A stretch of DNA of 64,000 nucleotides from contig CAYNLP010000003.1 in assembly GCA_964398115.1 (NCBI GenBank), positions 1-64,000 of the forward strand, in the 5' to 3' direction. The notes under the pieces were generated by a model, which was not told where the DNA came from, did no database searches, and was given only the letters and a program-made list of their open reading frames with translations. Positions within the stretch are counted from its first letter, which is position 1, and the number at the start of each line of letters is the position of its first letter. Made by a program: the position numbers and the translations under genes. The stretch comes from an uncultured Methanosarcinales archaeon (lineage in GTDB: Archaea; Nanobdellota; Nanobdellia; Woesearchaeales; CAYNLP01). This document shows positions 2,291 to 20,989 of this stretch, one piece after another.

Positions 2291-2635
2291 TTACCTCCCT
2301 ATGTATTTCTCTCTTGCTTTTTTGAGATTCCCGCTCAAGCCTTTCACGCGAGGCACTACTTGTTTTCCTTTAACGCCTCGTGTCAAGGCCATTGCAGTTC
2401 TGACTTTGTCTACCATATCGTGTGAAACTCTTAATATACCTTCTTGATTTTCTGGATGGTATTCTATGTCGAGGATTCCTGCTTGTGCGGTGTCGAAAAC
2501 ACCTAGTTTGTCTTTAACTTCATCTACTAAGATTTGTGATACTCCTTTTCCAAGAGAATCCTCACTAATTATTTCGTATGCTACAAACCTTTTGCGCTCC
2601 CTTAAACTGGGCGCCAACGGTTTCAACTTATTCAT
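2291..2635 (-). CDS. RNase P protein Pop5/Rpp14
   Basis: LAPSLRERKRFVAYEI start and GLSGNLKKA end; operon context. Confidence 0.9.
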   Translation of the reverse strand: MNKLKPLAPSLRERKRFVAYEIISEDSLGKGVSQILVDEVKDKLGVFDTAQAGILDIEYHPENQEGILRVSHDMVDKVRTAMALTRGVKGKQVVPRVKGLSGNLKKAREKYIGR

Positions 2636-2698
2636 TTTTTAAACCTTTTACGAGAAATATCCTCTCGCGTCTTTTTTCACTCAAGAATCAGGAATTAA

Positions 2699-3235
2699 AT
2701 AGACATTTATAAAGGTTATTGTTTTTACCTGGCTTTTCCTAAAAAGGATGTTATAAGTTTTGATGAACCTGGTAGTTGGGATTTTACTTCTACTATTTCA
2801 CCTAAAGACCCTGATAGCGACGCTGATGATGGCACTGTACAACATACCGTAAATGTTTGCATCGCAGCAGGAGAAACGTGCACGCACAGCGACTGCTGTA
2901 GCGGGATGTGTGAATACAAGGATGATACGGGGGATAGTGTTTGTATAAACAGTTGTCCGTCCGATCCAAATTTCAACTGGGATTCAGATGGTCATCCTAG
3001 CCAGTCTGATATAGGAGATTGTGACCCTGGTTTTGAAGTCTGTTATAGTAGTGATGATGTGTATGGTCCTTGTGATAGTTGGCCGCCTCATGATCTTGAT
3101 GGTCCTTGGTGGTTGGAGGAGGCTGGGCCTAGTGGTGATTGTGTGAATTTTGATGTTGAGGCTTGTGTTTATAATACGGAGTATGATGGTATAGTTTATG
3201 GTGAATATCTACCTATAACTTCTTATTCGTCTTAA
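2699..3235 (+). pseudogene. Probably 5'-truncated Cys-rich surface-protein fragment (Ig/PKD-like tail plus cystine-knot-like motif)
   Basis: Frame of ORF 2906..3235 stays open back to a TAA at 2696-2698 with no ATG, reading ...ISFDEPGSWDFTSTISPKDPDSDADDGTVQHTVNVCIAAGETCTHSDCCSGMC... Confidence 0.5.
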
Positions 3236-3245
3236 TTGTTGGGTT

Positions 3246-4793
3246 TTAGTTGTTGGTGTATTCGTCCATTCTGTGGTTGGATCCGAATGTTCTTTTTAGT
3301 ATTACTGAGCTGGTGAAGTTGTTTAGTTCTAGATTGGTTGGTTTTCCTGGTGGACATGCTGGTCCTGGTTGGGAGCAGTATATATCTTGTTCCGTCCTGT
3401 CTTCAGCTTCGTTCAGGTAGGTGTGTGTTAGTTCGTGATTCGTAAGATCATTGAGGTTTTCTCCTGTCCAGCGATGGTTTATTTTTATTGTTCCTTCTTT
3501 TGTGTTGGTTTCGGCTCCTATGCTGTCGGTTAGTATGATTATGTAGTCTCTTTTTGTGGAGTCTTGTACTATTTTTGCGTAGTTGTATTCGTTGTTGGGT
3601 CCGTTCCATTTTTTTATTGCGTCTTGCATTGTTTGTATTTGTTCTTGGGTTGCGCTGTCTGGGTGTATCCAGAAGTTTAGTGGTAGGCTTCCGTCTTTTG
3701 GTTCTCTTTCCAATATGTTTCCTAAATTGCGTGTTATTTTGTCAAACCAGTCTAGGTTGTTTTGGTATGCTGTGTCTTCTGGGTGTAGTGGTATGTGGGC
3801 GTAGAGTCCTACGGTGTGGTTGGTGTCTTCGTTTATTTGTATTGTGTGTGGGTTGTTTGGGTTTGCTATGTCGTACCAGGTTCCGATTGTGTCGGGATTT
3901 GTTTCGTCCCGCACTATTAGGGTGTATTCTCCGTTTTCTAGGTTGGGTATTGTTGCTTGTCCGTTCGTGTTGGTTCTTGTACTGTCGGCTTCGCCGTTTT
4001 TCTGGGCGATAACTAAGGCGTTTACTATGTCTACTAGGCCTACATCTGGTTGGGGGCTTGCTCCTTTTACGTTTACGGTTAGTTCTGGAGTGTCGGTTAT
4101 TTGTAGTGTTTGTGTGGTGGGGGGTGTTGATTTTCCTTGGTTGTCTTGTGCTTTCGCTGCTGTTTGTATATCTCCTGGTTCTTCGTATGTTAGGGTGGTG
4201 TCTATTGTGTTTCCTTTTATTCGTATGTTGTAGTTTCCGTTTCCGTTTGTGTCGAGGAATATGCTGTCTATTTTTGTGTTGTCTGTTGCGTTTACTTTGT
4301 GAGTGGCGGTGTCGCCTTCTGCTATGCTGTCGGGGGTTAATGTATAGGTTATTGCTTTTGTTGGTTGTATTAGTTTTGTTTCTGTGTTGCTGTTTTTTTC
4401 TTGGTTGTCTTTGGTTTGTGCTTTTAGTTTGGTTGTGTCTTGGAATGTTAGGGTGGTGTCGATTGGGTTTGTGGTGGTTATTTCGTAGTCGTTGGTGTTT
4501 TGGTCTGTGCTTAGCCGGTATTCTGTGATGTTGCCGTCTGGGTCGCTGCCGTCTACGCTCACATTTACGTCTAGTGGTCTCACGCCTTGGGTTGGATCAG
4601 CTTGTAGAGATACAGTCGGTTTTTGATTTTGTGGTGGTTCTTCTGGTGGTGTGGGCATGTTACCGTTTCCGCCTCCGCAGGCCATGCCAAGATATGTTAG
4701 GAGGGCGGTTCCTGCAGTTAGAGCCGTATTTTTCCAAGACTTGTATTTGGGTATTTCTTCCTTAACAGCTTCTTCTAGCTTTTCGCGACTCAT
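3246..4793 (-). CDS. Putative lipoprotein with PKD/Ig-like repeats and a C-terminal zincin metalloprotease domain
   Basis: Lipobox-like LGMA-C, Pro-rich linker, PKD-like DGSDPDGNITEY, prealbumin-like TNTNGQATIPNLENGEYTL, HELTH (HExxH). Confidence 0.75.
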   Translation of the reverse strand: MSREKLEEAVKEEIPKYKSWKNTALTAGTALLTYLGMACGGGNGNMPTPPEEPPQNQKPTVSLQADPTQGVRPLDVNVSVDGSDPDGNITEYRLSTDQNTNDYEITTTNPIDTTLTFQDTTKLKAQTKDNQEKNSNTETKLIQPTKAITYTLTPDSIAEGDTATHKVNATDNTKIDSIFLDTNGNGNYNIRIKGNTIDTTLTYEEPGDIQTAAKAQDNQGKSTPPTTQTLQITDTPELTVNVKGASPQPDVGLVDIVNALVIAQKNGEADSTRTNTNGQATIPNLENGEYTLIVRDETNPDTIGTWYDIANPNNPHTIQINEDTNHTVGLYAHIPLHPEDTAYQNNLDWFDKITRNLGNILEREPKDGSLPLNFWIHPDSATQEQIQTMQDAIKKWNGPNNEYNYAKIVQDSTKRDYIIILTDSIGAETNTKEGTIKINHRWTGENLNDLTNHELTHTYLNEAEDRTEQDIYCSQPGPACPPGKPTNLELNNFTSSVILKRTFGSNHRMDEYTNN

Positions 4794-4957
4794 TACTCTT
4801 TTTATAATTAATACTCTTTATAAAAATTTACTTTTTACTACCGTAAAGTTAAAATTATAGCTTTGTCGTGTTTTTCCGACTTAATACCTAACCAACCATG
4901 TTTTTTCCGGAATAAACTTGCAAGAAGATATATTAAAAGAATCAATAGAAAAACCCT

Positions 4958-5737
4958 ATGCTCAAATACGTCTACAATAAATTCAAACAATTCACCAAAG
5001 TACTCGCATTCACGAGCTTAATGGGATTTCAACAAGCACCAAGTGATTACGTCGTCAAACCCAAAGACACACTTTATGAAATAGCACAAACACAAGTTCA
5101 AACACTAAAATATGAGGAAGTTGTTGAAGAAACCAATCGTATTGCAAAAAACAATGATATGGGAACAATCCAAGAATACCCGTGGAGCGAAGGTTATGAA
5201 TGCATTGACGACCAAGACCCGAATTGTATATATCCAGGGCAAAAGCTAAAATTGGAGCGAGAGGAAGCGCCCCCAACCAACCCTCTTGCTCCAATACTAC
5301 CTCTAATACTAGGCGCAGGAGCCGTCGCCTACTCATATGGAAGAAGACAAAAAAAGGATTTAGATAACGCGTTAGAAGACCTTGTAAAATTCCGAAACAA
5401 ACACCCGCGACACTCCTTGGATCAACTCGTAAATAAAATAGAAGGAAACATCTACAAAGAAGGAAATCACTTACGACAACCTTTAAGGCAACACCTACGA
5501 CGATACAAAAAAGGAAAGACAAGAACAAAAATAGTAAGGTACGACCACCAACTCGCTAGCAAAGATATGAAAAAAGAAATGATAACGATGTACAAAAAAT
5601 CTGAAAAGAATTTAGAACAAGTAGCAGAACACCTAACCGAGAAGTACGGGATGAACATAAGCAGCAGCACAATTTCAAGAAGAGCGAGAAAAGAATTAGA
5701 AGTTAACAGCAGGGAAGAAGCCAAAAATCAGGCGTAG
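4958..5737 (+). CDS. LysM domain - transmembrane helix - C-terminal HTH-like protein
   Basis: YVVKPKDTLYEIA...DPNCIYPGQKLKL (LysM), hydrophobic PILPLILGAGAVAYSY followed by GRRQKK, and LEQVAEHLTEKYGMNISSSTISRRAR (HTH-like). Confidence 0.75.
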   Translation: MLKYVYNKFKQFTKVLAFTSLMGFQQAPSDYVVKPKDTLYEIAQTQVQTLKYEEVVEETNRIAKNNDMGTIQEYPWSEGYECIDDQDPNCIYPGQKLKLEREEAPPTNPLAPILPLILGAGAVAYSYGRRQKKDLDNALEDLVKFRNKHPRHSLDQLVNKIEGNIYKEGNHLRQPLRQHLRRYKKGKTRTKIVRYDHQLASKDMKKEMITMYKKSEKNLEQVAEHLTEKYGMNISSSTISRRARKELEVNSREEAKNQA

Positions 5738-7071
5738 CGTTCTCCTTCTCCGCTAACTCCTATAACTCTTTTAACTTCGGAAATCACGTGTTCAACTTCT
5801 TGTTCTGTTTCAGCTTCAACCGTTACGCGAAGTAAAGGCTCTGTATTACTCTTACGCACATTGAACCAATGCGTAGAAAAAGTCTTACTCACACCATCAA
5901 CGCGTAATGTTTCACCCTCAAACTCATCATCCACCTTCTGAATTTTTTCATCCTTATCCTCAACTTCAAAATTAACCTGTGTCAAAACCTTATCTTCATA
6001 TGGGTCAGCCAACTCCGCCAATGTCTTATCCGGCTTAGCCATACATGTTAAAACCTTAACCAAAGTGAGTAAAGCATTATCACAATAATGAGTTTCTTTA
6101 TGCTGATAATGCCCGCTATACTCACAACCCTGAACTCCTTCGTGCTCCATCAAAACATCCTTAACATTAGCATAACCCACCGGGCTAGGATAAGCTTCAC
6201 CACCACCCTCCTCAATATGATCAATCACACTCTTTCGATAGTTTAACACGTCCAAAGCAAAAGTCTTATTAGGTCCAGGATAATAATGATTACACCATAT
6301 TATAGCTATAGTTGAAGATTTAATCATACGACCATTTTCATCAAAGAAAACCGCTCTGTCACCATCCGCATCCACCATGAAACCAAGATCGTAATCTCCT
6401 TTTGAAAGTTCATCCTTAACTACCTCTTGACTCTCCGGCAATAAAGGATTAGGCTCGTGATTAGGAAAAGCACCATCAGGTTCAAAAAAGTATTTAGTCA
6501 CATTCAAATCTAACTCATCTATCAACTTATTCATGATAGGGCCGACACAACCGTTACTAGTATCCACCACCATCTTAACATCACCCAAGTCATCCTTCGC
6601 CGCATCCGACAAGAAATTAATATATTCATCAGAAAAATCTTCATCCACCAAACTCCCCCTTTCAGGATTTCCAAACTTTCCTTCTTCCATCAACTTCTTA
6701 ATTTCCAAACTACCCTTTTGCTTATTGATAAAGTCTGCCTTACCCCTGCACATCTTAAACCCAGTGTACTTGGGTGGATTATGACTTGCTGACACTATGA
6801 TAGCGCCGTCGAATTCGTCGTGTTTAGCACTAAGATAGTAAAGCAAAGGCGTGGTTATCAAACCTGCATCTACAGCGTCAGCTCCTTGATCAACTATTCC
6901 CTCGAGAAGTGCTTCACTAATGCTCGGACTGCTTTCTCTCGCGTCTCTACCAACAACGACTTTATCACTACTCGTGTATTGAACGAAAGCCCTACCTAGC
7001 TTATACGCGAAGTTTTCATCAATCTCTTCTTTGTAAACGCCTCGTATGTCGTAACTTTTGAAAACACTCAT
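5728..7071 (-). CDS. Phosphomannomutase/phosphoglucomutase
   Basis: FKSYDIRG, SASHNP (phospho-Ser), DADGDR, RKSNTEP. Confidence 0.95.
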   Translation of the reverse strand: MSVFKSYDIRGVYKEEIDENFAYKLGRAFVQYTSSDKVVVGRDARESSPSISEALLEGIVDQGADAVDAGLITTPLLYYLSAKHDEFDGAIIVSASHNPPKYTGFKMCRGKADFINKQKGSLEIKKLMEEGKFGNPERGSLVDEDFSDEYINFLSDAAKDDLGDVKMVVDTSNGCVGPIMNKLIDELDLNVTKYFFEPDGAFPNHEPNPLLPESQEVVKDELSKGDYDLGFMVDADGDRAVFFDENGRMIKSSTIAIIWCNHYYPGPNKTFALDVLNYRKSVIDHIEEGGGEAYPSPVGYANVKDVLMEHEGVQGCEYSGHYQHKETHYCDNALLTLVKVLTCMAKPDKTLAELADPYEDKVLTQVNFEVEDKDEKIQKVDDEFEGETLRVDGVSKTFSTHWFNVRKSNTEPLLRVTVEAETEQEVEHVISEVKRVIGVSGEGERYA

Positions 7072-7913
7072 AATTTTCTTTCCTTTCTAATACCTTTCCA
7101 ACCTTTAACGTTAATCTTATACTTTCCTTTCGCACTAGGATCAAACCATTGCCCGCTGAACGGATAGCCGAACAATTTTTCATCCTGGGCGAGTTTAGGG
7201 AACAAGTCATCTTCTAACTTGGCAAAGCCTTCCGGTACCAAATCGAGAACTTCAGGTTCCATAATGTATAACCCTGCATTAATTAAATTGGAAGGAGTGT
7301 TGCTAGGATCAGGCTTTTCCACAAAAGTAGTTATCTTATTGCCATTCATAACCGCCACTCCATAATCACTAGGATTATTCACCGTGGTTAGTGCAATCGT
7401 GGCAAAACCATCTTGTTCCTTATGGAATTCAAACATGTCCTTCAAATCAATATCTTTCAACTCATCCGCGTTCATCATAACAAAAGCTTCATCCAATTCA
7501 TCCTCAGCAAGTTTCAACGGACCCGCCGTTCCTAACGGGTTTTCTTCCTCTACATAAGAAATGTTTAACTCGAATTCGCTACCGTCTTCAAAGTACCTCT
7601 TAATATCTTTTCCGTTAGGACCTAAAGAAATTATTACATCTTCAACTCCGTGTTTTTTCAAAAGTTCAATATTATGATGCAAGATAGGCTTACCCGCTAC
7701 TTTCAACATACTCGCCGGTATTTGTTCACCATCTTTTTCTTCCGTCTCTCCACCTGCAAGGATGAAAGCTTTCTTTAACCTGTTATTACCTAACGCTTTC
7801 TTTAGCAAGAGTTCGAAAGCATGGCTTCTATTCTTAACTAGACTTCCATCTATCGTATCATCTACCTGCTCTAAAAGATCCTGATCTATTGTTAAAGTAA
7901 CCCTCTCTTTCAT
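7068..7913 (-). CDS. Ribbon-helix-helix domain fused to a sugar-phosphate nucleotidyltransferase-like domain
   Basis: KERVTLTIDQDLL...NRSHAFELLL (CopG/NikR-type RHH); ILAGG, EEENPLGTAG, FVEKP, INAGLY. Confidence 0.85.
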   Translation of the reverse strand: MKERVTLTIDQDLLEQVDDTIDGSLVKNRSHAFELLLKKALGNNRLKKAFILAGGETEEKDGEQIPASMLKVAGKPILHHNIELLKKHGVEDVIISLGPNGKDIKRYFEDGSEFELNISYVEEENPLGTAGPLKLAEDELDEAFVMMNADELKDIDLKDMFEFHKEQDGFATIALTTVNNPSDYGVAVMNGNKITTFVEKPDPSNTPSNLINAGLYIMEPEVLDLVPEGFAKLEDDLFPKLAQDEKLFGYPFSGQWFDPSAKGKYKINVKGWKGIRKERKL

Positions 7914-7972
7914 CCCAAAAACCTCAAATCCAATAACATATTTAAAATTTTCGTTTTTTGTATGAGGAAGTA

Positions 7973-8992
7973 TTACTTGTATTTTCTTAAGAGTGTTCTA
8001 ACCGCTTTCCTATCCCAACCAGCCCGCATCAAACTAACCCTTATATCCTCTATATGATGACCGTCACGCAAACACTCATCCACGTAATTCTGCATTATAC
8101 TACGATTTCTAAAACCAACCCTAAAGATTACTACACAGTCTCTGCACAAGTTTTTCAAAAATTCAAACTTTCCTCGACTTTCCAACTCAATCAAGACAAT
8201 ACCAACAACTATCAACACGCCTGCAATAACGCTAAAAAATAAGAGATTATTAGAGAAAGTCATCCCTATATTATGAATTTTTCTCTCTATAAAAGTACGA
8301 TTACCTTCGTTGTTCTCTTGAAATTGTTCTGGAGCCTTAATACCAGTTCCTTCTTTCTCTACTTCACCAGCCGCTACGATAAAGTTGCTTTCATCCCCTA
8401 CCACGATATCATGTACGAAGTAAGAAACTTTTAATTGAGTGTTAGCGGAAACATTATTCCAATTCCAAAAAAGTGAAAGAGGATTTTCACCAGCACTGTC
8501 TGGATTATCAACGAATGAAACTTCTGAAATATTACTTGCTGTTTTCTTATCTAAAAAATCCGCAATCAATAGACTTTGAAAACTTTCATCTGTTAAGACA
8601 GAAATAGTTCTTTTAGTTCTGTACGTAGTTTTCTCCACATTAGCATACACTGAGTTAATCTCATACACTTGTGATACTTTCTGATAAGTAACTCCTTCAC
8701 CTCTATTTAAAGAGTTAATAATTGAAGAAAAATCTTTACTGTAATTATTTTTTAACAAAATTAAACCACGCTGCATATCCTTTTCTAACGTCTTGTTCTC
8801 AACAGTATAAGAAGTCCCAACCCGTGAAACTATCGTATTGTTAAGTGTAACTTGTGAAATTCCTAACTCCTCTGGGTTGATAGTTTTCACAATAACTTCT
8901 TTCTCTGCCCTAGTAACATTACTTGAAATGTTCTGAGCATACGCTACAGGTATCAGAGTCAATAATAATATGATAAACGCTGTTTTTTTCAT
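7973..8992 (-). CDS. Hypothetical membrane-anchored secreted protein
   Basis: N-terminal signal peptide, C-terminal TM helix, cytoplasmic tail YVDECLRDGHHIEDIRVSLMRAGW. Confidence 0.7.
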   Translation of the reverse strand: MKKTAFIILLLTLIPVAYAQNISSNVTRAEKEVIVKTINPEELGISQVTLNNTIVSRVGTSYTVENKTLEKDMQRGLILLKNNYSKDFSSIINSLNRGEGVTYQKVSQVYEINSVYANVEKTTYRTKRTISVLTDESFQSLLIADFLDKKTASNISEVSFVDNPDSAGENPLSLFWNWNNVSANTQLKVSYFVHDIVVGDESNFIVAAGEVEKEGTGIKAPEQFQENNEGNRTFIERKIHNIGMTFSNNLLFFSVIAGVLIVVGIVLIELESRGKFEFLKNLCRDCVVIFRVGFRNRSIMQNYVDECLRDGHHIEDIRVSLMRAGWDRKAVRTLLRKYK

Positions 8993-9087
8993 CCCTCAAA
9001 CCCTCTAACCTCTTCAAAAAAATGTTTGTTCTTATATAAAGTTCTTATACAAAGTTATATAAATCCTTTTCATAGAAAAATATAGTA

Positions 9088-10101
9088 ATGTCTGAGGTTC
9101 TCAAATTCCCGGAAGAATACATTGACGAGTTTGACAGTGAAGATTTACTTTCTGATATTAAAGAGTTACCAACTCAACTCAAGGAAGGATACGACCTCGT
9201 GGAAGACATCACACTGCAAAACCCTAGTAAAGTCATAATTACAGGCATGGGTAGTAGTTTTTCAGCAGGACACCTCTTGAAAAGTTATTTGAGAGAATCA
9301 GGAGTTATGGTTATAGCTAACCAAGATTATTCTTTACCTGAAACCACAGACGGTGATAGTTTGGTGATAGCTATTAGTTATTCTGGCAATACTGAAGAAA
9401 CTGTTTCAGCGTATAGAGAGGCGGTGAGGAAAAAATGCTCCGTGATATCTTTGTCTCGAGGAGGAAAGCTTAGAGATTTGAGTGATATGAACGACACGCC
9501 TTTTGTTAAGCTGCCTAGTGGCTACAAGCCACGCGTCACTTTAGGATACCAAGTGGGTGCTTTACTTGGCGTTTTAGAAGAAGCAGGTATAATAAGGAAT
9601 GCTAAGTCACAGGTTAAGAATGCAAGCAAGGCGTTGAAACTAGACGTATTTGAAGATTATGCGAAGAAAATCTCTGAAAAATTAGAAGGGCGTATTCCTT
9701 TAATATATAGTTCTAAAACTTACTATCCGGTAGGCTATCGATGGCAAAACCAGTTTAATGAGAACAGTAAAATCATTGCACACAGTAATGTTTTTTCTGA
9801 TTTAAACCATAACGAAGTTGAAGGTTTCAGAAATGCCGACCAACAAGGTAGCTTTCAAATTGTGATGTTGCAAAGCCAGGACGACGCTCCCAAGATTAAG
9901 CAAAGGATGAAAACCACTCGTAAAATAGCTCAGGATATCGGCGTTGATGTGACACAAATTGGTATAAAAGGTAATAGTTACTTAACCAGGTTACTTTCTG
10001 GCGTCATGATTGGAGATCTTAGCAGTTATTATCTGGCCTTACGAAACGAGGTTGATCCTTCAGATATTGGAGCGATTGAGAAAGTTAAGAATCAATTATA
10101 A
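9088..10101 (+). CDS. Bifunctional phosphoglucose/phosphomannose isomerase (SIS fold)
   Basis: GMGSS, SYSGNTEET, QFNENSK, LNHNEVEG. Confidence 0.92.
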   Translation: MSEVLKFPEEYIDEFDSEDLLSDIKELPTQLKEGYDLVEDITLQNPSKVIITGMGSSFSAGHLLKSYLRESGVMVIANQDYSLPETTDGDSLVIAISYSGNTEETVSAYREAVRKKCSVISLSRGGKLRDLSDMNDTPFVKLPSGYKPRVTLGYQVGALLGVLEEAGIIRNAKSQVKNASKALKLDVFEDYAKKISEKLEGRIPLIYSSKTYYPVGYRWQNQFNENSKIIAHSNVFSDLNHNEVEGFRNADQQGSFQIVMLQSQDDAPKIKQRMKTTRKIAQDIGVDVTQIGIKGNSYLTRLLSGVMIGDLSSYYLALRNEVDPSDIGAIEKVKNQL

Positions 10102-10139
10102 AATGAAAAGAGAGAAAATAAAAAAGAGTTTTTTGGTTC

Positions 10140-10295
10140 TTATTGGTTCTTAGCTACGCCGCATAGGCCGAGTAGTGTGAATGCAGCGCTGTACCATTGT
10201 ATACCGAACATGTTCCAAGTTGTAAAGTCAGAAATGAGGTACAGCACACCTACGACCAATACTAGCCAGTTAAACCATGCTGGTGCGTCACCCAT
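10140..10295 (-). CDS. 51-aa small membrane protein (not in ORF track)
   Basis: MGDAPAWFNWLVLVVGVLYLISDFTTWNMFGIQWYSAAFTLLGLCGVAKNQ; strong SD GGGGGTGA upstream; TATA-like TTTATATA further upstream. Confidence 0.75.
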   Translation of the reverse strand: MGDAPAWFNWLVLVVGVLYLISDFTTWNMFGIQWYSAAFTLLGLCGVAKNQ

Positions 10296-10390
10296 AAATT
10301 TCACCCCCGTAATAGTATGATACTATCATATTAAATGAATTACTTATATATAAATATTATTACTACCACTGTGCTTTTTCCTATACTGAC

Positions 10391-10537
10391 AACCGAAAAG
10401 TTTAAAAACAGAAAAGCTCATAATTAGTGTTGCATTGGTCAGAATCGTTGGGGGATTCTTAACAGACTAAAAGTATAACTTACACCTATGTTAGATCCCA
10501 ATATTTCATAACGTAACACCCCGGTGAAGAGGAAAAA
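10391..10537 (+). promoter_or_regulatory. tfe promoter (BRE/TATA) and structured ~110-nt 5' leader
   Basis: CCGAAAAG-TTTAAAAA at 10393-10408; complementary segments 10427-33/10513-19, 10435-40/10465-70 and 10441-46/10454-59. Confidence 0.6.
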
Positions 10538-11077
10538 ATGACTGAAACAATAAATGTTCATAAGGAAAAAGAAAGCGCGGAAGTTACCGACGAAATGATA
10601 GACGAAGTAGTCGAAGAACTCGTCGGTGAAGATGCACTTCCAGTGGTGGAATTTCTAAAAGGAAAAGAACACATTTCAGAATTCATAGTCGCAGAAGAGC
10701 TCGATCAAGAAATCCACGAAACCCGAAAGCTTCTCTACAAGCTCCTAGAACACAACATCGTAGAATTCGAAAGAAAAAAAGACAAAGTAAAAGGATGGTA
10801 CATCTGCTACTGGGACTTAAACAAAGAAATGGTCCCATACCTCGTTGAAAAAATTAGAAAAGAAAAACTAGAAAACCTAAGAGAAAGATTAGAAAACGAA
10901 GAAAAAACCAGCTTTTACATGTGCAACAACGCATGTATAAGAATGAGCTTCGAAGAAGCAATGGAATTCGACTTCCAATGTCCAGAATGCGGACAACTAA
11001 TGGAAGAAAAAGACAATTCCAGAACCATAGAATTCTTGAAAGAAAAAATAGAAAAACTAGAAAACAGTCTAGAATAA
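10538..11077 (+). CDS. tfe: Transcription factor E alpha
   Basis: wHTH ISEFIVAEEL...RKLLYKL, KGWYICYW, Zn ribbon CNNAC...FQCPECG. Confidence 0.93.
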   Translation: MTETINVHKEKESAEVTDEMIDEVVEELVGEDALPVVEFLKGKEHISEFIVAEELDQEIHETRKLLYKLLEHNIVEFERKKDKVKGWYICYWDLNKEMVPYLVEKIRKEKLENLRERLENEEKTSFYMCNNACIRMSFEEAMEFDFQCPECGQLMEEKDNSRTIEFLKEKIEKLENSLE

Positions 11078-11115
11078 AGCTTTATAACACCCTTCTACTT
11101 TACCAAACAAACAAT

Positions 11116-11844
11116 ATGGAAATAGCAGAAAAACCTTTCAAAATTTCTGAAAACACGTATATAAAAGACCTCTGCCTATACATAGAAGATTTAAACACTC
11201 TAGTCATAGGAGACGCACACCTAGGATATGAAGAAAGTTTAAACAAGCAAGGTGTATTAATACCCAAATTTCAATTCAAAGAAATAATGGAACGATTAAA
11301 GAAAATAATAGATGACACCAATCCAGAAACTATCATCGTAGTAGGAGACTTAAAACACGAATTCGGCACGATAAGCAACGAAGAATGGAGAGACACCCTA
11401 GACTTTATCGACTTACTGCAAGAAAACGCAGAATTAATACTAATCAAAGGAAACCACGACACCATCTTAGAACCAATTGCAGAGAAGAAAGACGTGGAAA
11501 TACACGACCACTACACAATAGGAGAATACTACTTCTGCCACGGACATAAAATACCCGAAGATTTAGAATTCCAAAACGCTTCCACCATAATCATTGGACA
11601 TGAACACCCCGCCATAGGTTTGAAAGACGGTCCAAGAGTAGAAACCTACAAATGCTTCCTCAAAGGAAAAAACCAAGATAAAGAAATAATAGTACTACCA
11701 AGCCTAAGCACATTGCCAAAAGGAACAGACGTGTTAAAAGAACAAATACAAAGCCCATTCCTCAAAGACTTATCAAATTTCAAAGCATTTATTGTAGAAG
11801 ACGAAGTATACGACTTTGGCAAAATAAAAGAATTGAAAAGTTAA
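11116..11844 (+). CDS. Calcineurin-like metallophosphoesterase
   Basis: DAHLG, GDLKH, GNHD, HGH, GHEHP; real start is probably ATG 11116. Confidence 0.9.
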   Translation: MEIAEKPFKISENTYIKDLCLYIEDLNTLVIGDAHLGYEESLNKQGVLIPKFQFKEIMERLKKIIDDTNPETIIVVGDLKHEFGTISNEEWRDTLDFIDLLQENAELILIKGNHDTILEPIAEKKDVEIHDHYTIGEYYFCHGHKIPEDLEFQNASTIIIGHEHPAIGLKDGPRVETYKCFLKGKNQDKEIIVLPSLSTLPKGTDVLKEQIQSPFLKDLSNFKAFIVEDEVYDFGKIKELKS

Positions 11845-12407
11845 GAATAAGCTTCACGCACCAAATCCGCCTTAGTAACCAAACCCAAAAACTCACCCTT
11901 CTCCTTAACCAAAACTAACGGGAAATGCTTCAACAAAGGCAAGAAAGCACTCTCCGGAGTATTCTTAGAAACAGTAGGCGGAGCAGCCTCCATCACATCC
12001 TCCACCAACAAGTCTTCAACACTCTCATCAAATACATGATCCAACAAACTACTTTCAGTAACCAAACCAACCAGAGAAGAACCATCCAAAACAGGCAACT
12101 GACTAATCTCCCGAGACTTCATCTTCTTAATAACCCTTTCTATATCGTCATCAACCTGACAAAAAACAACATCCTCAACCATTAACTCCTCAGCAACCGG
12201 CTCATTCCTCACCTTAGCATCTTCCAAAACACCCCAAATACTCTCCAACTTAGAATAACTAGGATTAATCCTACCATTCTCAATCTTAGTAATCAAACTC
12301 TGACTAACACCACTAGCTTCCGCCAACTCAGCCTGAGTCAAACCCAAACGCTTCCTAACCCCCCTCACATTCTCCAAATCCAAACCAAAAAAAAAAAAAA
12401 AAAACAA
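11841..12407 (-). CDS. XRE-family HTH plus CBS-pair transcriptional regulator (start uncertain because of a poly-T tract)
   Basis: RKRLGLTQAELAEASGVSQSLITKIENG followed by two CBS motifs (SQLPV, GLVTKADL). Confidence 0.9.
   Translation of the reverse strand: MFFFFFFGLDLENVRGVRKRLGLTQAELAEASGVSQSLITKIENGRINPSYSKLESIWGVLEDAKVRNEPVAEELMVEDVVFCQVDDDIERVIKKMKSREISQLPVLDGSSLVGLVTESSLLDHVFDESVEDLLVEDVMEAAPPTVSKNTPESAFLPLLKHFPLVLVKEKGEFLGLVTKADLVREAYS
12387..12404. repeat. 18-nt A/T homopolymer at the 5' end of the HTH-CBS gene
   Basis: A18 counted on the + strand. Confidence 0.9.
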
Positions 12408-12512
12408 CCATCCCTTAAAAATATTCGTATAAGAATAAAACTGTCAGAAGCGTTTAAATAATAGTAATTAAAACCAGAGATATAGAAAGAAAAAATATAG
12501 GAGGGAATTCAC

Positions 12513-13664
12513 ATGACAAGATACCTAACAAGTGAATCAGTGACAGAAGGACATCCAGACAAAATTTGCGATCAAATAAGCGATGCAGTTCTCGACAACT
12601 TATTGGCACAAGATCCGGACAGTAGAGTAGCGGTTGAGTGCCTAGCCACTACAGGCATTATAATGGTGGCTGGAGAGGTCACAACTAAAGGTTATGCAGA
12701 TGTTCAAAACATTGCAAGAGACACTTTGGAAGAGATTGGATATACAAATCCTGAATATGGAATTGACAACGAGGATGCGGGAGTCCTTGTAAGCATTCAT
12801 GAACAAAGCCCTGACATCGCTCAAGGCGTGGATGAAGGAGAAGATAAAGAACAAGGCGCCGGCGACCAAGGCATGATGTTTGGATACGCGTGTAATGAAA
12901 CACCAGAGCTAATGCCCTTGCCAATAGTGTTGGCGCATAAGCTCACTAGAAGACTCACAGAAGTACGTAAAGAAGGAATCATGGATTACCTTGGACCAGA
13001 TGGTAAAAGCCAAGTCACGATAGAGTACGAGGATGGAGAGCCAGAAAGATTAGAAGCTGTAGTTATATCTACGCAACATGATGAAACTACCGACACTGAA
13101 AAATTAAAACGAGAAGTTAAGGAGAAAGTCATCAAACACGTTTGTGATGATTTAATAGATGATGAAACAAACTTCCATATCAACCCTACAGGTAAGTTCG
13201 TCATAGGAGGACCGGAAGGAGATACTGGACTTACAGGAAGAAAAGTAGTTGTTGACACTTACGGCGGAATCGGACGTGTAGGAGGTGGATGCTTTTCCGG
13301 GAAAGACCCGAGCAAAGTTGATAGAAGTGCAGCCTACGCCGCCCGTTACATTGCAAAGAACGTGGTAGCAGCTGGACTGGCGGAAGAGTGTGAAGTACAG
13401 TTAGATTATGCTATTGGCGTGGCAGAACCTGTCGGTTTTAATGTTGAAACGTTCGGCACAAACAAAATTGACGAGGATGAAATAGTGGATTTGATTAAAG
13501 ATAACTTCGAGTTGAAGCCGAAAGAAATCATTGAAAACCTTGATTTGAAAAGACCGATTTACAAAAAAACTGCTTGTTACGGTCACTTTGGCAGGGAAGA
13601 TTCAGACTTTACGTGGGAAAAGATTGACAAGGCAGAAACATTGAGAGAACAAGCAGGATTATAA
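12513..13664 (+). CDS. metK: S-adenosylmethionine synthetase, bacterial/eukaryal type
   Basis: [33 protein letters not shown]. Confidence 0.97.
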
Positions 13665-14201
13665 TTTTTCTTTTTCTGCTTTTTCACTAACTATCGTTGA
13701 ATTACCTGTGGGGTCTTCTATGCTTATGGTAATGCTGTCACGACCCCAAATACATCGGTTTATCTTTTTAATCTTATTTTTTAACTTATCTCTCTTTTCT
13801 TTATCATCGGAGGCTTCCTTCATATCTTCCAGTACTTCTTTAAACTTATTCAGTAAACCTTCAATATTAGTTATAAAACCGTTTGCGGCTTCTCCTGGTT
13901 CCATGTCTCCTATGTAATGAAATTTTACTTTTGCATTTGCAGACTTCACGACTCGGATGTTAAGATCGTCTTCACTGTCAACCTCGATCTTGTATTTCAC
14001 TCCATCCTTATCTTCTTCTGCTTCTACATCACTCTTTTTGTAACCGCAATTGCCACAGTTCATAGAAAGGATGTGTGTTAGGCCAAAGTAAGGTATTTCT
14101 ACTATAGTTTCTGAAAGGGTGAGTTGGTCTGCATCGCAGAACATACATTTCTCGCCAGTTATTACTTCTTTCTCTCCCTCTTCTAAATCTACTTGATCCA
14201 C
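13659..14201 (-). CDS. ZPR1-related zinc-finger protein
   Basis: CMFC...EIPYFG...[26 protein letters not shown] start at 14201 behind SD AGGTGGGG. Confidence 0.9.
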
Positions 14202-14226
14202 AATTACCCCACCTGAAAAAAGTTTT

Positions 14227-14613
14227 TTACTCCTGTTCTTCAATATCTTCTGTCTTGTCACTTCGGTCTACTTCTGCGAAGTCAGGAGTTGCAACGATGT
14301 AATCATCGCTGAAACCTGCGATGTCTCCTTCGATTGCGTCACAGGTTTTCTTCAACTTGTTGATAGCTCTTTTGAGTTCAACCATGTCTTTATCCTTTAA
14401 TGGTTGAATGTTTATTAGAGCTATTGTGAATCCTTCTCGTAGGTCGTCTAGAATTGGTTTGATATCTGAGAAGTCTTCAATTACAAAAGGTTTGACTATG
14501 ACTTTTCTTTGAGATTTACTTGACACGTCAGTATCAAGTTCCAAATATTCTTCTTCTCCCTCTGCCATGTCTTCTTCGTAATCTTTCCCTGTTAGTTTAT
14601 CCAAAAATCCCAT
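14227..14613 (-). CDS. sepF: Cell division protein SepF (archaeal type)
   Basis: MGFLDKL amphipathic start; ELKRAINKLK...GDIAG...IVATP. Confidence 0.88.
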   Translation of the reverse strand: MGFLDKLTGKDYEEDMAEGEEEYLELDTDVSSKSQRKVIVKPFVIEDFSDIKPILDDLREGFTIALINIQPLKDKDMVELKRAINKLKKTCDAIEGDIAGFSDDYIVATPDFAEVDRSDKTEDIEEQE

Positions 14614-14675
14614 AAGATTCGCCACTCAATCTTTTGTATTTAGGAATGGAACTCATCAGTATATAAAGCTTTTGG

Positions 14676-14900
14676 TTAGCTCTCTTTCTTAACATGATTT
14701 CTATATTCATCTTTCCCAAAACTGGCTAGTAGTACTAGTAGGACGAAGAGTATCATAGTAGGTGGTAAGTGGCGGATGAGAGGATGACCTGAAATTATAA
14801 ATGCATCCCAAAATGCTATATGTATTCCAATCAATATCGTAACTAGCCATGTCTTGATAAAGTCATCCCAGTATACAAAGAACCTTTCGAACGAATTCAT
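14676..14900 (-). CDS. Small two-TM hypothetical protein
   Basis: 74-aa ORF with two hydrophobic segments filling the intergenic gap. Confidence 0.6.
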   Translation of the reverse strand: MNSFERFFVYWDDFIKTWLVTILIGIHIAFWDAFIISGHPLIRHLPPTMILFVLLVLLASFGKDEYRNHVKKES

Positions 14901-14942
14901 CGTTATAATATGAGAAGAAATGGCTTAAAAACGTTTTCGAAT

Positions 14943-15629
14943 TTACTTATACTGGATATCGAATTGAGGTTTTAATTGTTCGATTAATGATTGAATTGCT
15001 TGTTGTCTCTTTTGCTGTTCCAACCTGCTCACTATCTGTGGTTTTATTTGCTCGTATGGTGGTATTGGTTGTTGTGATGTTTGATTGTATTGTTGGTAGA
15101 AGTTTCTTGCTTCTTGGTCGGTCACGTTCTTTATATCTAGCGCATCTTGCAGATAACTTTGTACTGCGAGTTGTCTTTTATAATTCGATAGTTGGTCTTC
15201 AAAACTTGTGCCTTGGCTTTGTAGTCTCTGCTTTAATTGTTGCAATGTTTGTCCTTGTTGTTGTAGGCTTTCGTTTACTCTCTGTTTCACTTCTCTGTTG
15301 GTTGGTACGAATCCCTCTTGCTTGGCTTTCTGATATAATACTTCTTGATTGATCGCGCTTTCCAGTGCTTGCTGGTCGGAAACGTTTTGTCTTGGACCCG
15401 CTCTTTGCTTGATACTGTTAACTTCTGCTTGGGTTATCTCCGCTCCTTCAACGGTTGCCAAAACCTTGTTTGGATTTACCTGCTGATTGACGTTCTGCTG
15501 GTTCGTCCCGCCAGTATTTGAAAATATTATGAACACTGCGATTGCGGCAACGGCTAAAACTCCAAGAATTATTTGGTTACGTCTGTCTTTCAAGAAATCC
15601 AAGCTTATCTCATCATCTTCATCAGCCAT
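14943..15629 (-). CDS. SurA/PrsA N-terminal-domain membrane-anchored chaperone-like protein
   Basis: TM anchor, VLATVEGAEITQAEV, AINQEVLYQKAKQEG; no parvulin domain recognised. Confidence 0.8.
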   Translation of the reverse strand: MADEDDEISLDFLKDRRNQIILGVLAVAAIAVFIIFSNTGGTNQQNVNQQVNPNKVLATVEGAEITQAEVNSIKQRAGPRQNVSDQQALESAINQEVLYQKAKQEGFVPTNREVKQRVNESLQQQGQTLQQLKQRLQSQGTSFEDQLSNYKRQLAVQSYLQDALDIKNVTDQEARNFYQQYNQTSQQPIPPYEQIKPQIVSRLEQQKRQQAIQSLIEQLKPQFDIQYK

Positions 15630-20551: not shown

Positions 20552-20989
20552 CTAACTTAATCTACCTATTTTATGCTCCAAATCTGCATCGTATTCTCCT
20601 TTCAACCTTTTAACTAGAGAAGTCCTCTGCTTATCCAAACGGATGAGTTCTTCCCTATCTATCAACTCCAAACCGTTATTAACGCCGTAATGTAAAGCTC
20701 TTGGAACAAAATCTCTGTTAGTAACTACCACACCTTTCTTGGAATCTATCCCAAGTAATTCCAAAACGCTGTGGAACTTGGAAACCTTCTCTAATGAAAC
20801 GTTACCATTTGTCAAATACTTACATTCAACGAAACGCTTGTTCCAAAAACGACCATACACGACATCAATCTGATACCTTGTCCTCTGTCCACCCAACTCC
20901 TTATCTAAAACAACATCTCGCTCAACGTTGGTATAACCCAAGTCGATCACTAAGTTCTCTATCCATTTCTCGAACGCCTCGTACATCAT
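20552..20989 (-). CDS. Stand-alone Mrr_cat-type PD-(D/E)xK restriction endonuclease
   Basis: FEKWIENL...LGY, QIDVV...FVECK, GVVVTNRDF, LELIDREEL. Confidence 0.85.
   Translation of the reverse strand: MMYEAFEKWIENLVIDLGYTNVERDVVLDKELGGQRTRYQIDVVYGRFWNKRFVECKYLTNGNVSLEKVSKFHSVLELLGIDSKKGVVVTNRDFVPRALHYGVNNGLELIDREELIRLDKQRTSLVKRLKGEYDADLEHKIGRLS

Follow-up and report, generated by a model that had tools for sequence, protein, structure and literature searches.

A transmembrane protein with a LysM domain and an undescribed helix-turn-helix-type module in a woesearchaeal archaeon: a candidate sensor of foreign wall material

A gene at positions 4958-5737 of a 64,000-nucleotide stretch of archaeal DNA (positions 1 to 64,000 of contig CAYNLP010000003.1, assembly GCA_964398115.1, placed in the Woesearchaeales; hereafter the window) codes for a protein that joins an N-terminal LysM domain, a single predicted transmembrane (TM) helix and a C-terminal helix-turn-helix (HTH)-like module, and that is divergent from the gene for a putative surface lipoprotein. 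The best reading of this protein, which we hold tentatively and with slightly less than even confidence, is that of a transmembrane one-component regulator sensing foreign wall material. To our knowledge, how DPANN archaea recognize the cells on which they depend is largely unknown, and recognizable signaling proteins are few in them. In the family described here, LysM and YkuD serve as alternative murein-directed ectodomains to one HTH-type module of the cytoplasm, in organisms with murein hydrolases and no found murein ligases; the family would provide a specific candidate, open to cloning, for a sensor of bacterial wall. The window is contig C3 of its genome, G000 (G numbers denote relatives' genomes, G000 the window's own, and C a contig), which amounts to 1.0 Mb in 67 contigs and is 91% complete; the locus lies among genes for the proteasome, the exosome and RNase P. 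An earlier note, made from the letters alone, had reported two divergent open reading frames (ORFs), at 4958-5737 on the forward strand and at 3246-4793 on the reverse strand, and both are present, separated by a gap of 164 nt at 4794-4957. Its description of the first product, as an N-terminal LysM, one TM helix with basic residues on its C-side and an HTH-like C-terminus, was likewise borne out by Pfam, NCBIfam and PHROG matches, by hydropathy and by an AlphaFold model. The features of this gene are as follows.

4958..5737, forward strand: gene for the LysM-TM-HTH-like protein (259 aa; stop codon included), present in a single copy in the genome
4958..5029, forward strand: signal-peptide-like N-terminus, residues 1-24, with a basic n-region and then the short hydrophobic VLAFTSLMGF; low model confidence
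5030..5257, forward strand: LysM domain, residues 25-100, with an insert of about 30 residues (66-95) holding Cys82 and Cys90
5285..5341, forward strand: single TM helix predicted from hydropathy, residues 110-128 (LAPILPLILGAGAVAYSYG)
5342-5356, forward strand: basic stretch RRQKK after the TM helix, read from the sequence
5348..5512, forward strand: first helical subdomain of the cytoplasmic module, residues 131-185, WhiA-HTH-like
5537..5734, forward strand: second subdomain, residues 194-259, a predicted three-helix homeodomain/transposase-type HTH with the signature YGMxISxSTIS..R..L.V..R.EA

The LysM domain is recognized in pieces by different models. PF01476 (CBM50) scores 24.2 bits against a cut-off of 20.9 with an aligned part confined to residues 31-45, NCBIfam LysM models match the last strand (residues 86-98), and PHROG 380, the wall-binding part of an endolysin, spans residues 26-104 (E 2.5e-6); together, these matches point to a LysM domain interrupted by some 30 inserted residues. 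A six-frame search of the genome gave a LysM score of 17.1, below the same cut-off of 20.9. The Cys82/Cys90 pair of the insert is invariant across the six closest relatives. While AlphaFold run on the single sequence reached a pLDDT of 44.5, the use of A2, an alignment of 67 sequences, raised it to 84.7, with block means of 84-96 over residues 31-100 and 82-98 over residues 131-259, and with low values only at 1-25 and 107-121. In this model residues 25-101 have the beta-alpha-alpha-beta arrangement of LysM and match solved LysM domains in the VIA fold search, which confirms the LysM fold at the level of predicted structure. The same search matched residues 194-259 with three-helix DNA-binding domains; since all its Z-scores are below 8, a range that the tool warns can be generic for helical domains, the HTH fold of the C-terminal module is plausible and not proven. 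Foldseek found no match in the PDB at E ≤0.001, and its top-ranking rows were two-part HTH domains of the AraC type, aligned along some 125 columns, and LysM domains at probabilities of up to 0.99. These comparisons, which the earlier note had proposed for both regions, recovered a LysM-like fold and HTH-like subdomains in the model at modest Z. A profile of A2 run against PDB sequences returned nothing meaningful, with a designed coiled coil as the best match (E 0.035), and an Atlas search with residues 129-259 gave no usable match. At the levels of both sequence and fold, the best likeness of residues 194-259 is to the HTH of Tc3, IS630 and ISCth4 transposases and of the Clr5 type, with all the matches of the window protein below cut-off.

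The arrangement with LysM outside and the HTH-type module inside, which the earlier note had proposed, is supported for the window protein by its signal-like start, its acidic LysM, the conserved Cys pair and the basic stretch that follows the TM helix. Residues 1-24 hold four Lys or Arg (K+R) and no Asp or Glu (D+E), and the N-termini of the relatives display clearer signal or lipobox sequences than that of the window protein. The LysM ectodomain is acidic (7 K+R versus 15 D+E) and the C-terminal cytoplasmic part basic (33 K+R versus 18 D+E). Between them lies the TM stretch of residues 110-128, with a hydropathy of 1.74 in a 17-residue and 1.46 in a 19-residue window and with REEAPPTNP, an acidic flank, before it and RRQKK after it, as called by a hydropathy heuristic rather than by a dedicated topology predictor. 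On the reading that we favor, the protein would thus be bitopic, with an exported N-terminus that places one LysM on the cell surface, followed by the TM helix and by a basic two-part HTH module in the cytoplasm. The LysM would bind an N-acetylglucosamine (GlcNAc)-containing glycan that the cell itself does not make, most likely murein, or muropeptides that the SLT and M23 hydrolases of the cell free from bacteria. Binding of this ligand might then cluster the tethered HTH module or change its conformation, and so alter transcription; the divergent lipoprotein gene would be only one candidate target.

A word-indexed homologue search returned only the window protein itself, and an exhaustive search of representatives recovered 68 proteins, itself included, at E ≤0.001, and 15 at ≤1e-10, the relatives carrying public names of Nanoarchaeota or Candidatus Woesearchaeota only. 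They fall into several architectures. Class A has eight proteins of 259-370 aa, the window's among them (P0001, P0005-9, P0034 and P0040), with a signal or anchor, LysM, TM and the module. Class B has six proteins of 650-798 aa, in which some 340 residues form an N-terminal domain, followed by a hydrophobic segment, LysM, a linker and the module. In the remaining members the module, of about 125 residues, is C-terminal in otherwise unrecognized and mostly non-hydrophobic proteins; its terminal HTH-like unit is present in two tandem copies in two of the loci (L026, G319:C15, 322-1983; L032, G092:C3, 679-2145). The module is marked by the signature RYD...Y..S...L......YGMxISxSTIS..R..L.V..R.EA, with R252 invariant in 67 of 67 sequences and the recognition-helix-like S-x-S-T-I-S-R/K near-invariant among them. 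A Pfam scan that took in 58 of the 67 relatives, the nine shortest being left out, found Clr5 in nine (above cut-off in P0028, P0042 and P0005), HTH_Tnp_Tc3_2 in three and HTH_32 in one (all below cut-off), Transposase_mut in one, LysM in four and YkuD in none. The module is thus a family, judging from these alignments, of at least 67 representative proteins that is undescribed and has no Pfam entry. It looks order-specific: in a phylum-wide sample of 401 genomes 16 match at 1e-8, of which 15 are of the same order and one is of another order and matches via the LysM part only. Profile A1 matches 31 of 401 genomes of the same order at E ≤1e-5, and LysM and the module occur together in G000, G007, G107 and G252, and also in G002, whose copy is interrupted by two contig ends. 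With the patterns used, no confirmed relatives emerged from genome contigs (A3), metagenome contigs (A3, A6) or viral contigs (A6).

The strongest new support for a wall-related sensor comes from a domain swap in this family. In ORFs from the relatives' genomes the module is fused to a YkuD L,D-transpeptidase domain in G362 (47.2 bits), G110 (51.2 bits) and G092 (73.3 bits), against a Pfam cut-off of 23.4, and in G107 (53.1 bits) and G252 (52.4 bits) a YkuD gene immediately precedes the class B gene. One cytoplasmic module is thus preceded by either of two unrelated murein-directed domains. The genome of the window itself yielded no Mur_ligase_M, no YkuD and no other LysM in domain searches, and no murein or pseudomurein ligase, in agreement with the earlier note's premise of an archaeon devoid of its own murein; as the genome is 91% complete, these are to be taken as not found rather than as absent. 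Its murein hydrolase domains, SLT (35.9 bits) and Peptidase_M23 (89.6 bits), both occur in a row of pilin-like genes on contig C9. This row (G000:C9:6508-19301) comprises no fewer than 12 ORFs on one strand that start in a pilin-like manner (MxKKGQ and a hydrophobic stretch), with Peptidase_M23 in a 1230-aa protein and the lytic transglycosylase domain SLT in a 264-aa protein, and looks like a type-IV-pilus-like locus with murein hydrolases in a genome without a found murein ligase. Archaeal murein hydrolases that kill bacteria have been reported, and passages of the same source cite murein transglycosylases in Woesearchaeota (PMC12352652). The earlier proposal of a membrane-tethered factor that senses wall or glycan is therefore upheld in part, its wall theme having gained the YkuD fusions and the YkuD neighbors.

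The main rival to a sensor-regulator role is that of a membrane anchor or scaffold, whereby LysM or YkuD would fix the protein to wall or glycan material, either that of a partner cell or that of the cell's own envelope, and the module would recruit a cytoplasmic protein. Membrane-tethered proteins of a comparable kind are RodZ, with an HTH that binds MreB, and FimV/HubP, with a periplasmic LysM, a TM helix and a cytoplasmic interaction domain. Consistent with a scaffold, the matches to HTH-like folds are weak and take in SANT/Myb domains, which bind proteins, the class B genes form operons with genes for an AAA ATPase and for two YkuD-like proteins and do not adjoin obvious targets, and no divergent target gene is conserved in ten loci. 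However, in 71 of 78 members (median net charge +7; the 78 include four loci that repeat representatives) the module has a strongly basic character; it also bears a transposase- or paired-type recognition-helix signature, and most members are soluble, with nothing to anchor. RodZ and FimV/HubP, further, act on the cell's own murein, which the genome of the window shows no means of making; no sequence similarity between them and the window protein was detected, and the Pfam scans gave no match to the RodZ-type HTH_25 or to FimV. We consider a scaffold possible, though unlikely. Were the module not to bind DNA, the family would still mark a lineage-specific coupling of wall contact to the cytoplasm.

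The gene rows around class B are themselves conserved. In L040 (G107:C13:4000-21000; 7669-15237) and L041 (G252:C31; 64-4398) the same-strand order is a YkuD-like gene (536 or 439 aa), a YkuD gene (353 or 360 aa) and the class B LysM-module gene, the first of these being the second YkuD-like protein that lies further upstream in both genomes. Upstream of this row G107 has an AAA ATPase (IetA/TRIP13-like in PADLOC), a 345-aa protein of unknown affinity and a Mrr_cat nuclease. A Mrr_cat protein of the restriction-endonuclease fold is also coded in the window at 20555-20989 on the reverse strand; its identity is 45% to the one next to the G107 class B operon and 37% to one near the YkuD-module gene of G362.

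We surveyed the topology of the family with a Kyte-Doolittle 19-residue window and HMM-defined domain borders. A hydrophobic stretch (≥1.32) lies between LysM or YkuD and the module in 13 of the 19 members bearing either domain, including all eight of class A, and no stretch with a hydropathy ≥1.3 occurs in 56 of the 59 members that have neither LysM nor YkuD, from which the module would seem to be mostly cytoplasmic. The six other LysM- or YkuD-bearing members (P0011-P0015 and the YkuD form of G110) lack an intervening stretch. They suggest another role, in which the module acts outside the cell in part of the family, for instance as a surface receptor keeping extracellular DNA or some other polymer beside a wall-binding domain, with a logic like that of ComEA. 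Such a role would suit these six members, which have a signal or anchor and no second hydrophobic stretch, and the basic nature of the module; it is at odds with the window protein and all eight short forms, which have a TM helix in between and positive residues after it, and with the 56 members in which neither an exported-type domain nor a signal- or TM-like stretch is seen. We regard it as very improbable. The earlier note had named LysM and HTH on the same side of the membrane as refuting its model; this arrangement is indicated for the six relatives and not for the window protein, with its TM helix between LysM and module.

Several observations weigh against the sensor-regulator reading. 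On account of the same six exceptions the module may not always be cytoplasmic, which lowers confidence that it is always a cytoplasmic DNA binder, and the Gly/Ala-rich second TM segment of class B ('TM2') is present in G107 and missing in G252 of the same genus, so that this segment may not be real. The window protein reaches no Pfam cut-off for an HTH family (HTH_32, HTH_Tnp_Tc3_2 and Clr5 all fall below it). In its LysM, Lys36 takes the place of a Gly found in at least 90% of 14 relatives in the motif GD(T/S)L, and LysM can also bind chitin or other glycans. Finally, the gene is missing at the syntenic site of the same-genus genome G001, and was not found elsewhere in that 83%-complete genome, and is thus dispensable. 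There, only 63 nt separate the Rpp14 gene from the phosphomannomutase gene that follows it; window 2636-5727, a block of 3.1 kb with the LysM-HTH gene, the divergent lipoprotein gene and a gene remnant, is accordingly an insertion or deletion.

The absence of this block from a genome of the same genus, along with the weak matches to transposase HTH families and to an endolysin PHROG, would be in keeping with a relic of a mobile element or virus, that is, of a transposase HTH, domesticated or in decay, that chance joined to a LysM of the endolysin type. The window module shares its two-part HTH arrangement with the Tc3, IS630 and ISCth4 transposases and the Clr5 type; as against these transposases, the window protein has no transposase catalytic domain, and its gene is single-copy. 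Moreover, the ends of the block have no flanking repeats that would mark a mobile element, the searches of viral contigs with the patterns used yielded no relatives, PADLOC gave no match for either the LysM-HTH protein or the lipoprotein, the protein is conserved over its full length at 36-47% identity across several families of the order, and its relatives adjoin housekeeping genes such as TFE, TruB and RtcA. Hence, we find a relic hardly credible. In G007 and G362 the relatives adjoin TFE and a metallophosphoesterase, genes that in the window lie about 5 kb downstream; by this gene order, the LysM-HTH gene is probably old in its neighborhood and the lipoprotein cassette beside it a recent arrival.

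Membrane-bound regulators of archaea are exemplified by ArnR and ArnR1 of Sulfolobus. Demey et al. (2023), by whom such proteins are described as common in archaea, catalogued 50,302 transmembrane transcription regulators, of which 1,384 are in 367 of 404 archaeal species (PMC10269533). As far as the main text and supplement of that catalog go, LysM does not occur in the former, and the latter lists 25 of the 50,302 as LysM-bearing, in rows of the types HTH_25,LysM (1 TM) or LysM,Trans_reg_C,BTAD (3-5 TM). These, like the window protein, have LysM, TM and a DNA-binding domain in one protein, but they belong to other DNA-binding families, are larger and have bacterial-type domain sets, and none of the rows examined resembles the window family. 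ToxR, CadC and TcpP of bacteria (PMC10269533), as well as ArnR and ArnR1, likewise hold a DNA-binding-type domain at the membrane with an extracytoplasmic domain in the same polypeptide, whereas in the window protein the order is reversed, with the sensor N-terminal and the HTH C-terminal, the ectodomain is a LysM, and the module, which would bind DNA, is of a two-part homeodomain/transposase-like type. Plant LysM receptors (CERK1, CEBiP, LYK3) differ in having three LysM units in the ectodomain and a kinase or co-receptor rather than an HTH as output, and no common descent with the window protein is implied beyond the LysM fold. In literature on LysM or YkuD together with DPANN, Woesearchaeota, archaea or membrane-bound transcription we found no description of a LysM-TM-HTH architecture in archaea. 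The earlier note's statement that it knew of no described archaeal system with this architecture is to be qualified in that the architecture has precedents: transmembrane regulators are catalogued in archaea, and LysM-bearing ones are among the regulators listed. The window protein is a variant of an already known type, built on an undescribed HTH-type module.

The second gene of the divergent pair and its surroundings comprise the following features.

3246..4793, reverse strand: gene for the second product (515 aa), lipobox-like at its N-terminus, with a PKD-like repeat, a domain resembling CarboxypepD_reg and the motif HELTH at residues 453-457 (bases 3423-3437); putative zincin of the cell surface
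2849..3235, forward strand: 3' remnant of a gene for a Cys-rich secreted protein; its ORF at 2906-3235 shares 67% identity with the C-terminal 102 residues of a 527-aa protein (C1:17024-18604)
4794..4957, no strand: divergent intergenic region of 164 nt with AT-rich TATA-like boxes on both sides
4832..4841, reverse strand: GTAGTAAAAA, 10 nt, 48 nt upstream of the lipoprotein ATG; candidate cis-element

The 515-aa protein was described in the earlier note by a lipobox, a PKD repeat and an HExxH motif. Its N-terminus bears the lipobox-like LGMAC-GGG with Cys39, non-canonical at position -3, and its paralogues have IAC-GGG and LGAC-GGG. The genome encodes the maturation enzymes Lgt (PF01790, E 8.7e-70; G000:C1:6447-7190) and signal peptidase II, LspA (PF01252, 111.6 bits; G000:C46:113-487), which makes lipobox processing, as in a bacterial-type lipoprotein, plausible. 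The HExxH motif is HELTH at 453-457, with HEFSH (467) and HEAGH (418) in the paralogues. The PKD motif is discerned by eye and has no Pfam match on this protein; the paralogue P0003 has a weak PKD_4 match (E 4.4e-4). CarboxypepD_reg scores 28.8 bits, below cut-off, and neither Pfam nor NCBIfam has a peptidase match for the protein. An Atlas feature search with residues 320-515 pointed to Peptidase_M10 clusters (0.90, with 157 shared features) and offers a lead only.

The history of this gene bears on the earlier proposal that the LysM-HTH protein controls it. Two paralogues on C1, a contig of the same genome, are its only homologues (three matches including itself, among 8000 scored candidates from 5.8 billion proteins). 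At the DNA level, identity is 72% between 2849-4351 and C1:17389-15919, a region with P0003 and the end of a Cys-rich gene, and 81% between 4347-4628 and the part of the other paralogue, P0004, that codes for its N-terminus; 4818-4856 matches the P0004 promoter. By these alignments the gene is a mosaic of the two C1 paralogues and a young duplicate. Genes for Cys-rich secreted proteins (934 aa, C1:12479-15280; 527 aa, C1:17024-18604) flank the paralogues on C1. In the window the similarity to such a gene extends upstream of the ATG of ORF 2906-3235, and since only this 3' remnant is kept the cassette was copied and truncated. No lipoprotein homologue lies beside family members at ten loci in nine genomes, where no neighbor bears HExxH except for a metallophosphoesterase, and five whole genomes of relatives gave no lipoprotein match.

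A wall-glycan sensor that directly controls the divergent lipobox/HExxH gene and its two C1 paralogues through GTAGTAAAAA would account for the divergent pair with its common region of 164 nt. It would also account for the promoters of the three paralogues: GTAGTAAAAA, which recurs at C1:15382-15391 and C1:19339-19348 (both on the forward strand), stands 48-50 nt upstream of the ATG in three of three, just upstream of the TATA box, and is the sole conserved block there, the remaining promoter sequence having diverged, for which reason we take it to be a candidate cis-element. The genome has eight copies in all, of which six are just upstream of genes in matching orientation. As our own base-composition estimate predicts about 5.7, the motif is not enriched overall; it may be inherited promoter sequence with no tie to the LysM-HTH protein, and nothing links the two. 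With the confinement of the lipoprotein family to one genome, its absence from the relatives and their loci, the mosaic youth of the gene beside a gene remnant, and the lack of the whole block in G001, the earlier claim of control over a divergent protease is not borne out, the promoter motif being its one remaining lead, and we judge such control improbable. The most far-reaching scenario is that in this murein-less DPANN archaeon a surface LysM wired to a tethered HTH detects bacterial wall and switches on a small regulon, marked by GTAGTAAAAA, of surface lipoprotein proteases that evolve fast, with sister lineages using a YkuD detector in a family specific to Woesearchaeales. If true, this would be a dedicated family for sensing the wall of a host or prey in the Woesearchaeales; we would give it a small chance.

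Within the intergenic region, a possible operator was seen in the inverted repeat TTTTTATAA/TTATAAAAA and in a 14-nt direct repeat at 4794-4826, and both were set aside as AT-rich and TATA-like. Scans for sigma-70-type promoters and terminators stayed at chance level, with models that do not apply to archaea. No RNA runs are listed that cover window 2600-6000. Low-depth DNA contigs from one sediment study bridge 2635/2636 (X1 and X2) and 5728-5737 (X1), and no single piece among them spans 4958 with 31 letters on either side.

Between the LysM-HTH gene and TFE, window 5728-10101 codes for a phosphogluco/phosphomannomutase, an NTP-transferase, a 339-aa membrane protein and a phosphoglucose isomerase with two SIS domains. 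The NTP-transferase has a weak ribbon-helix-helix-like match at its N-terminus (RHH_1, E 0.11, below cut-off). The genes at 4958-5737 and 5728-7071 share 10 nt at their 3' ends.

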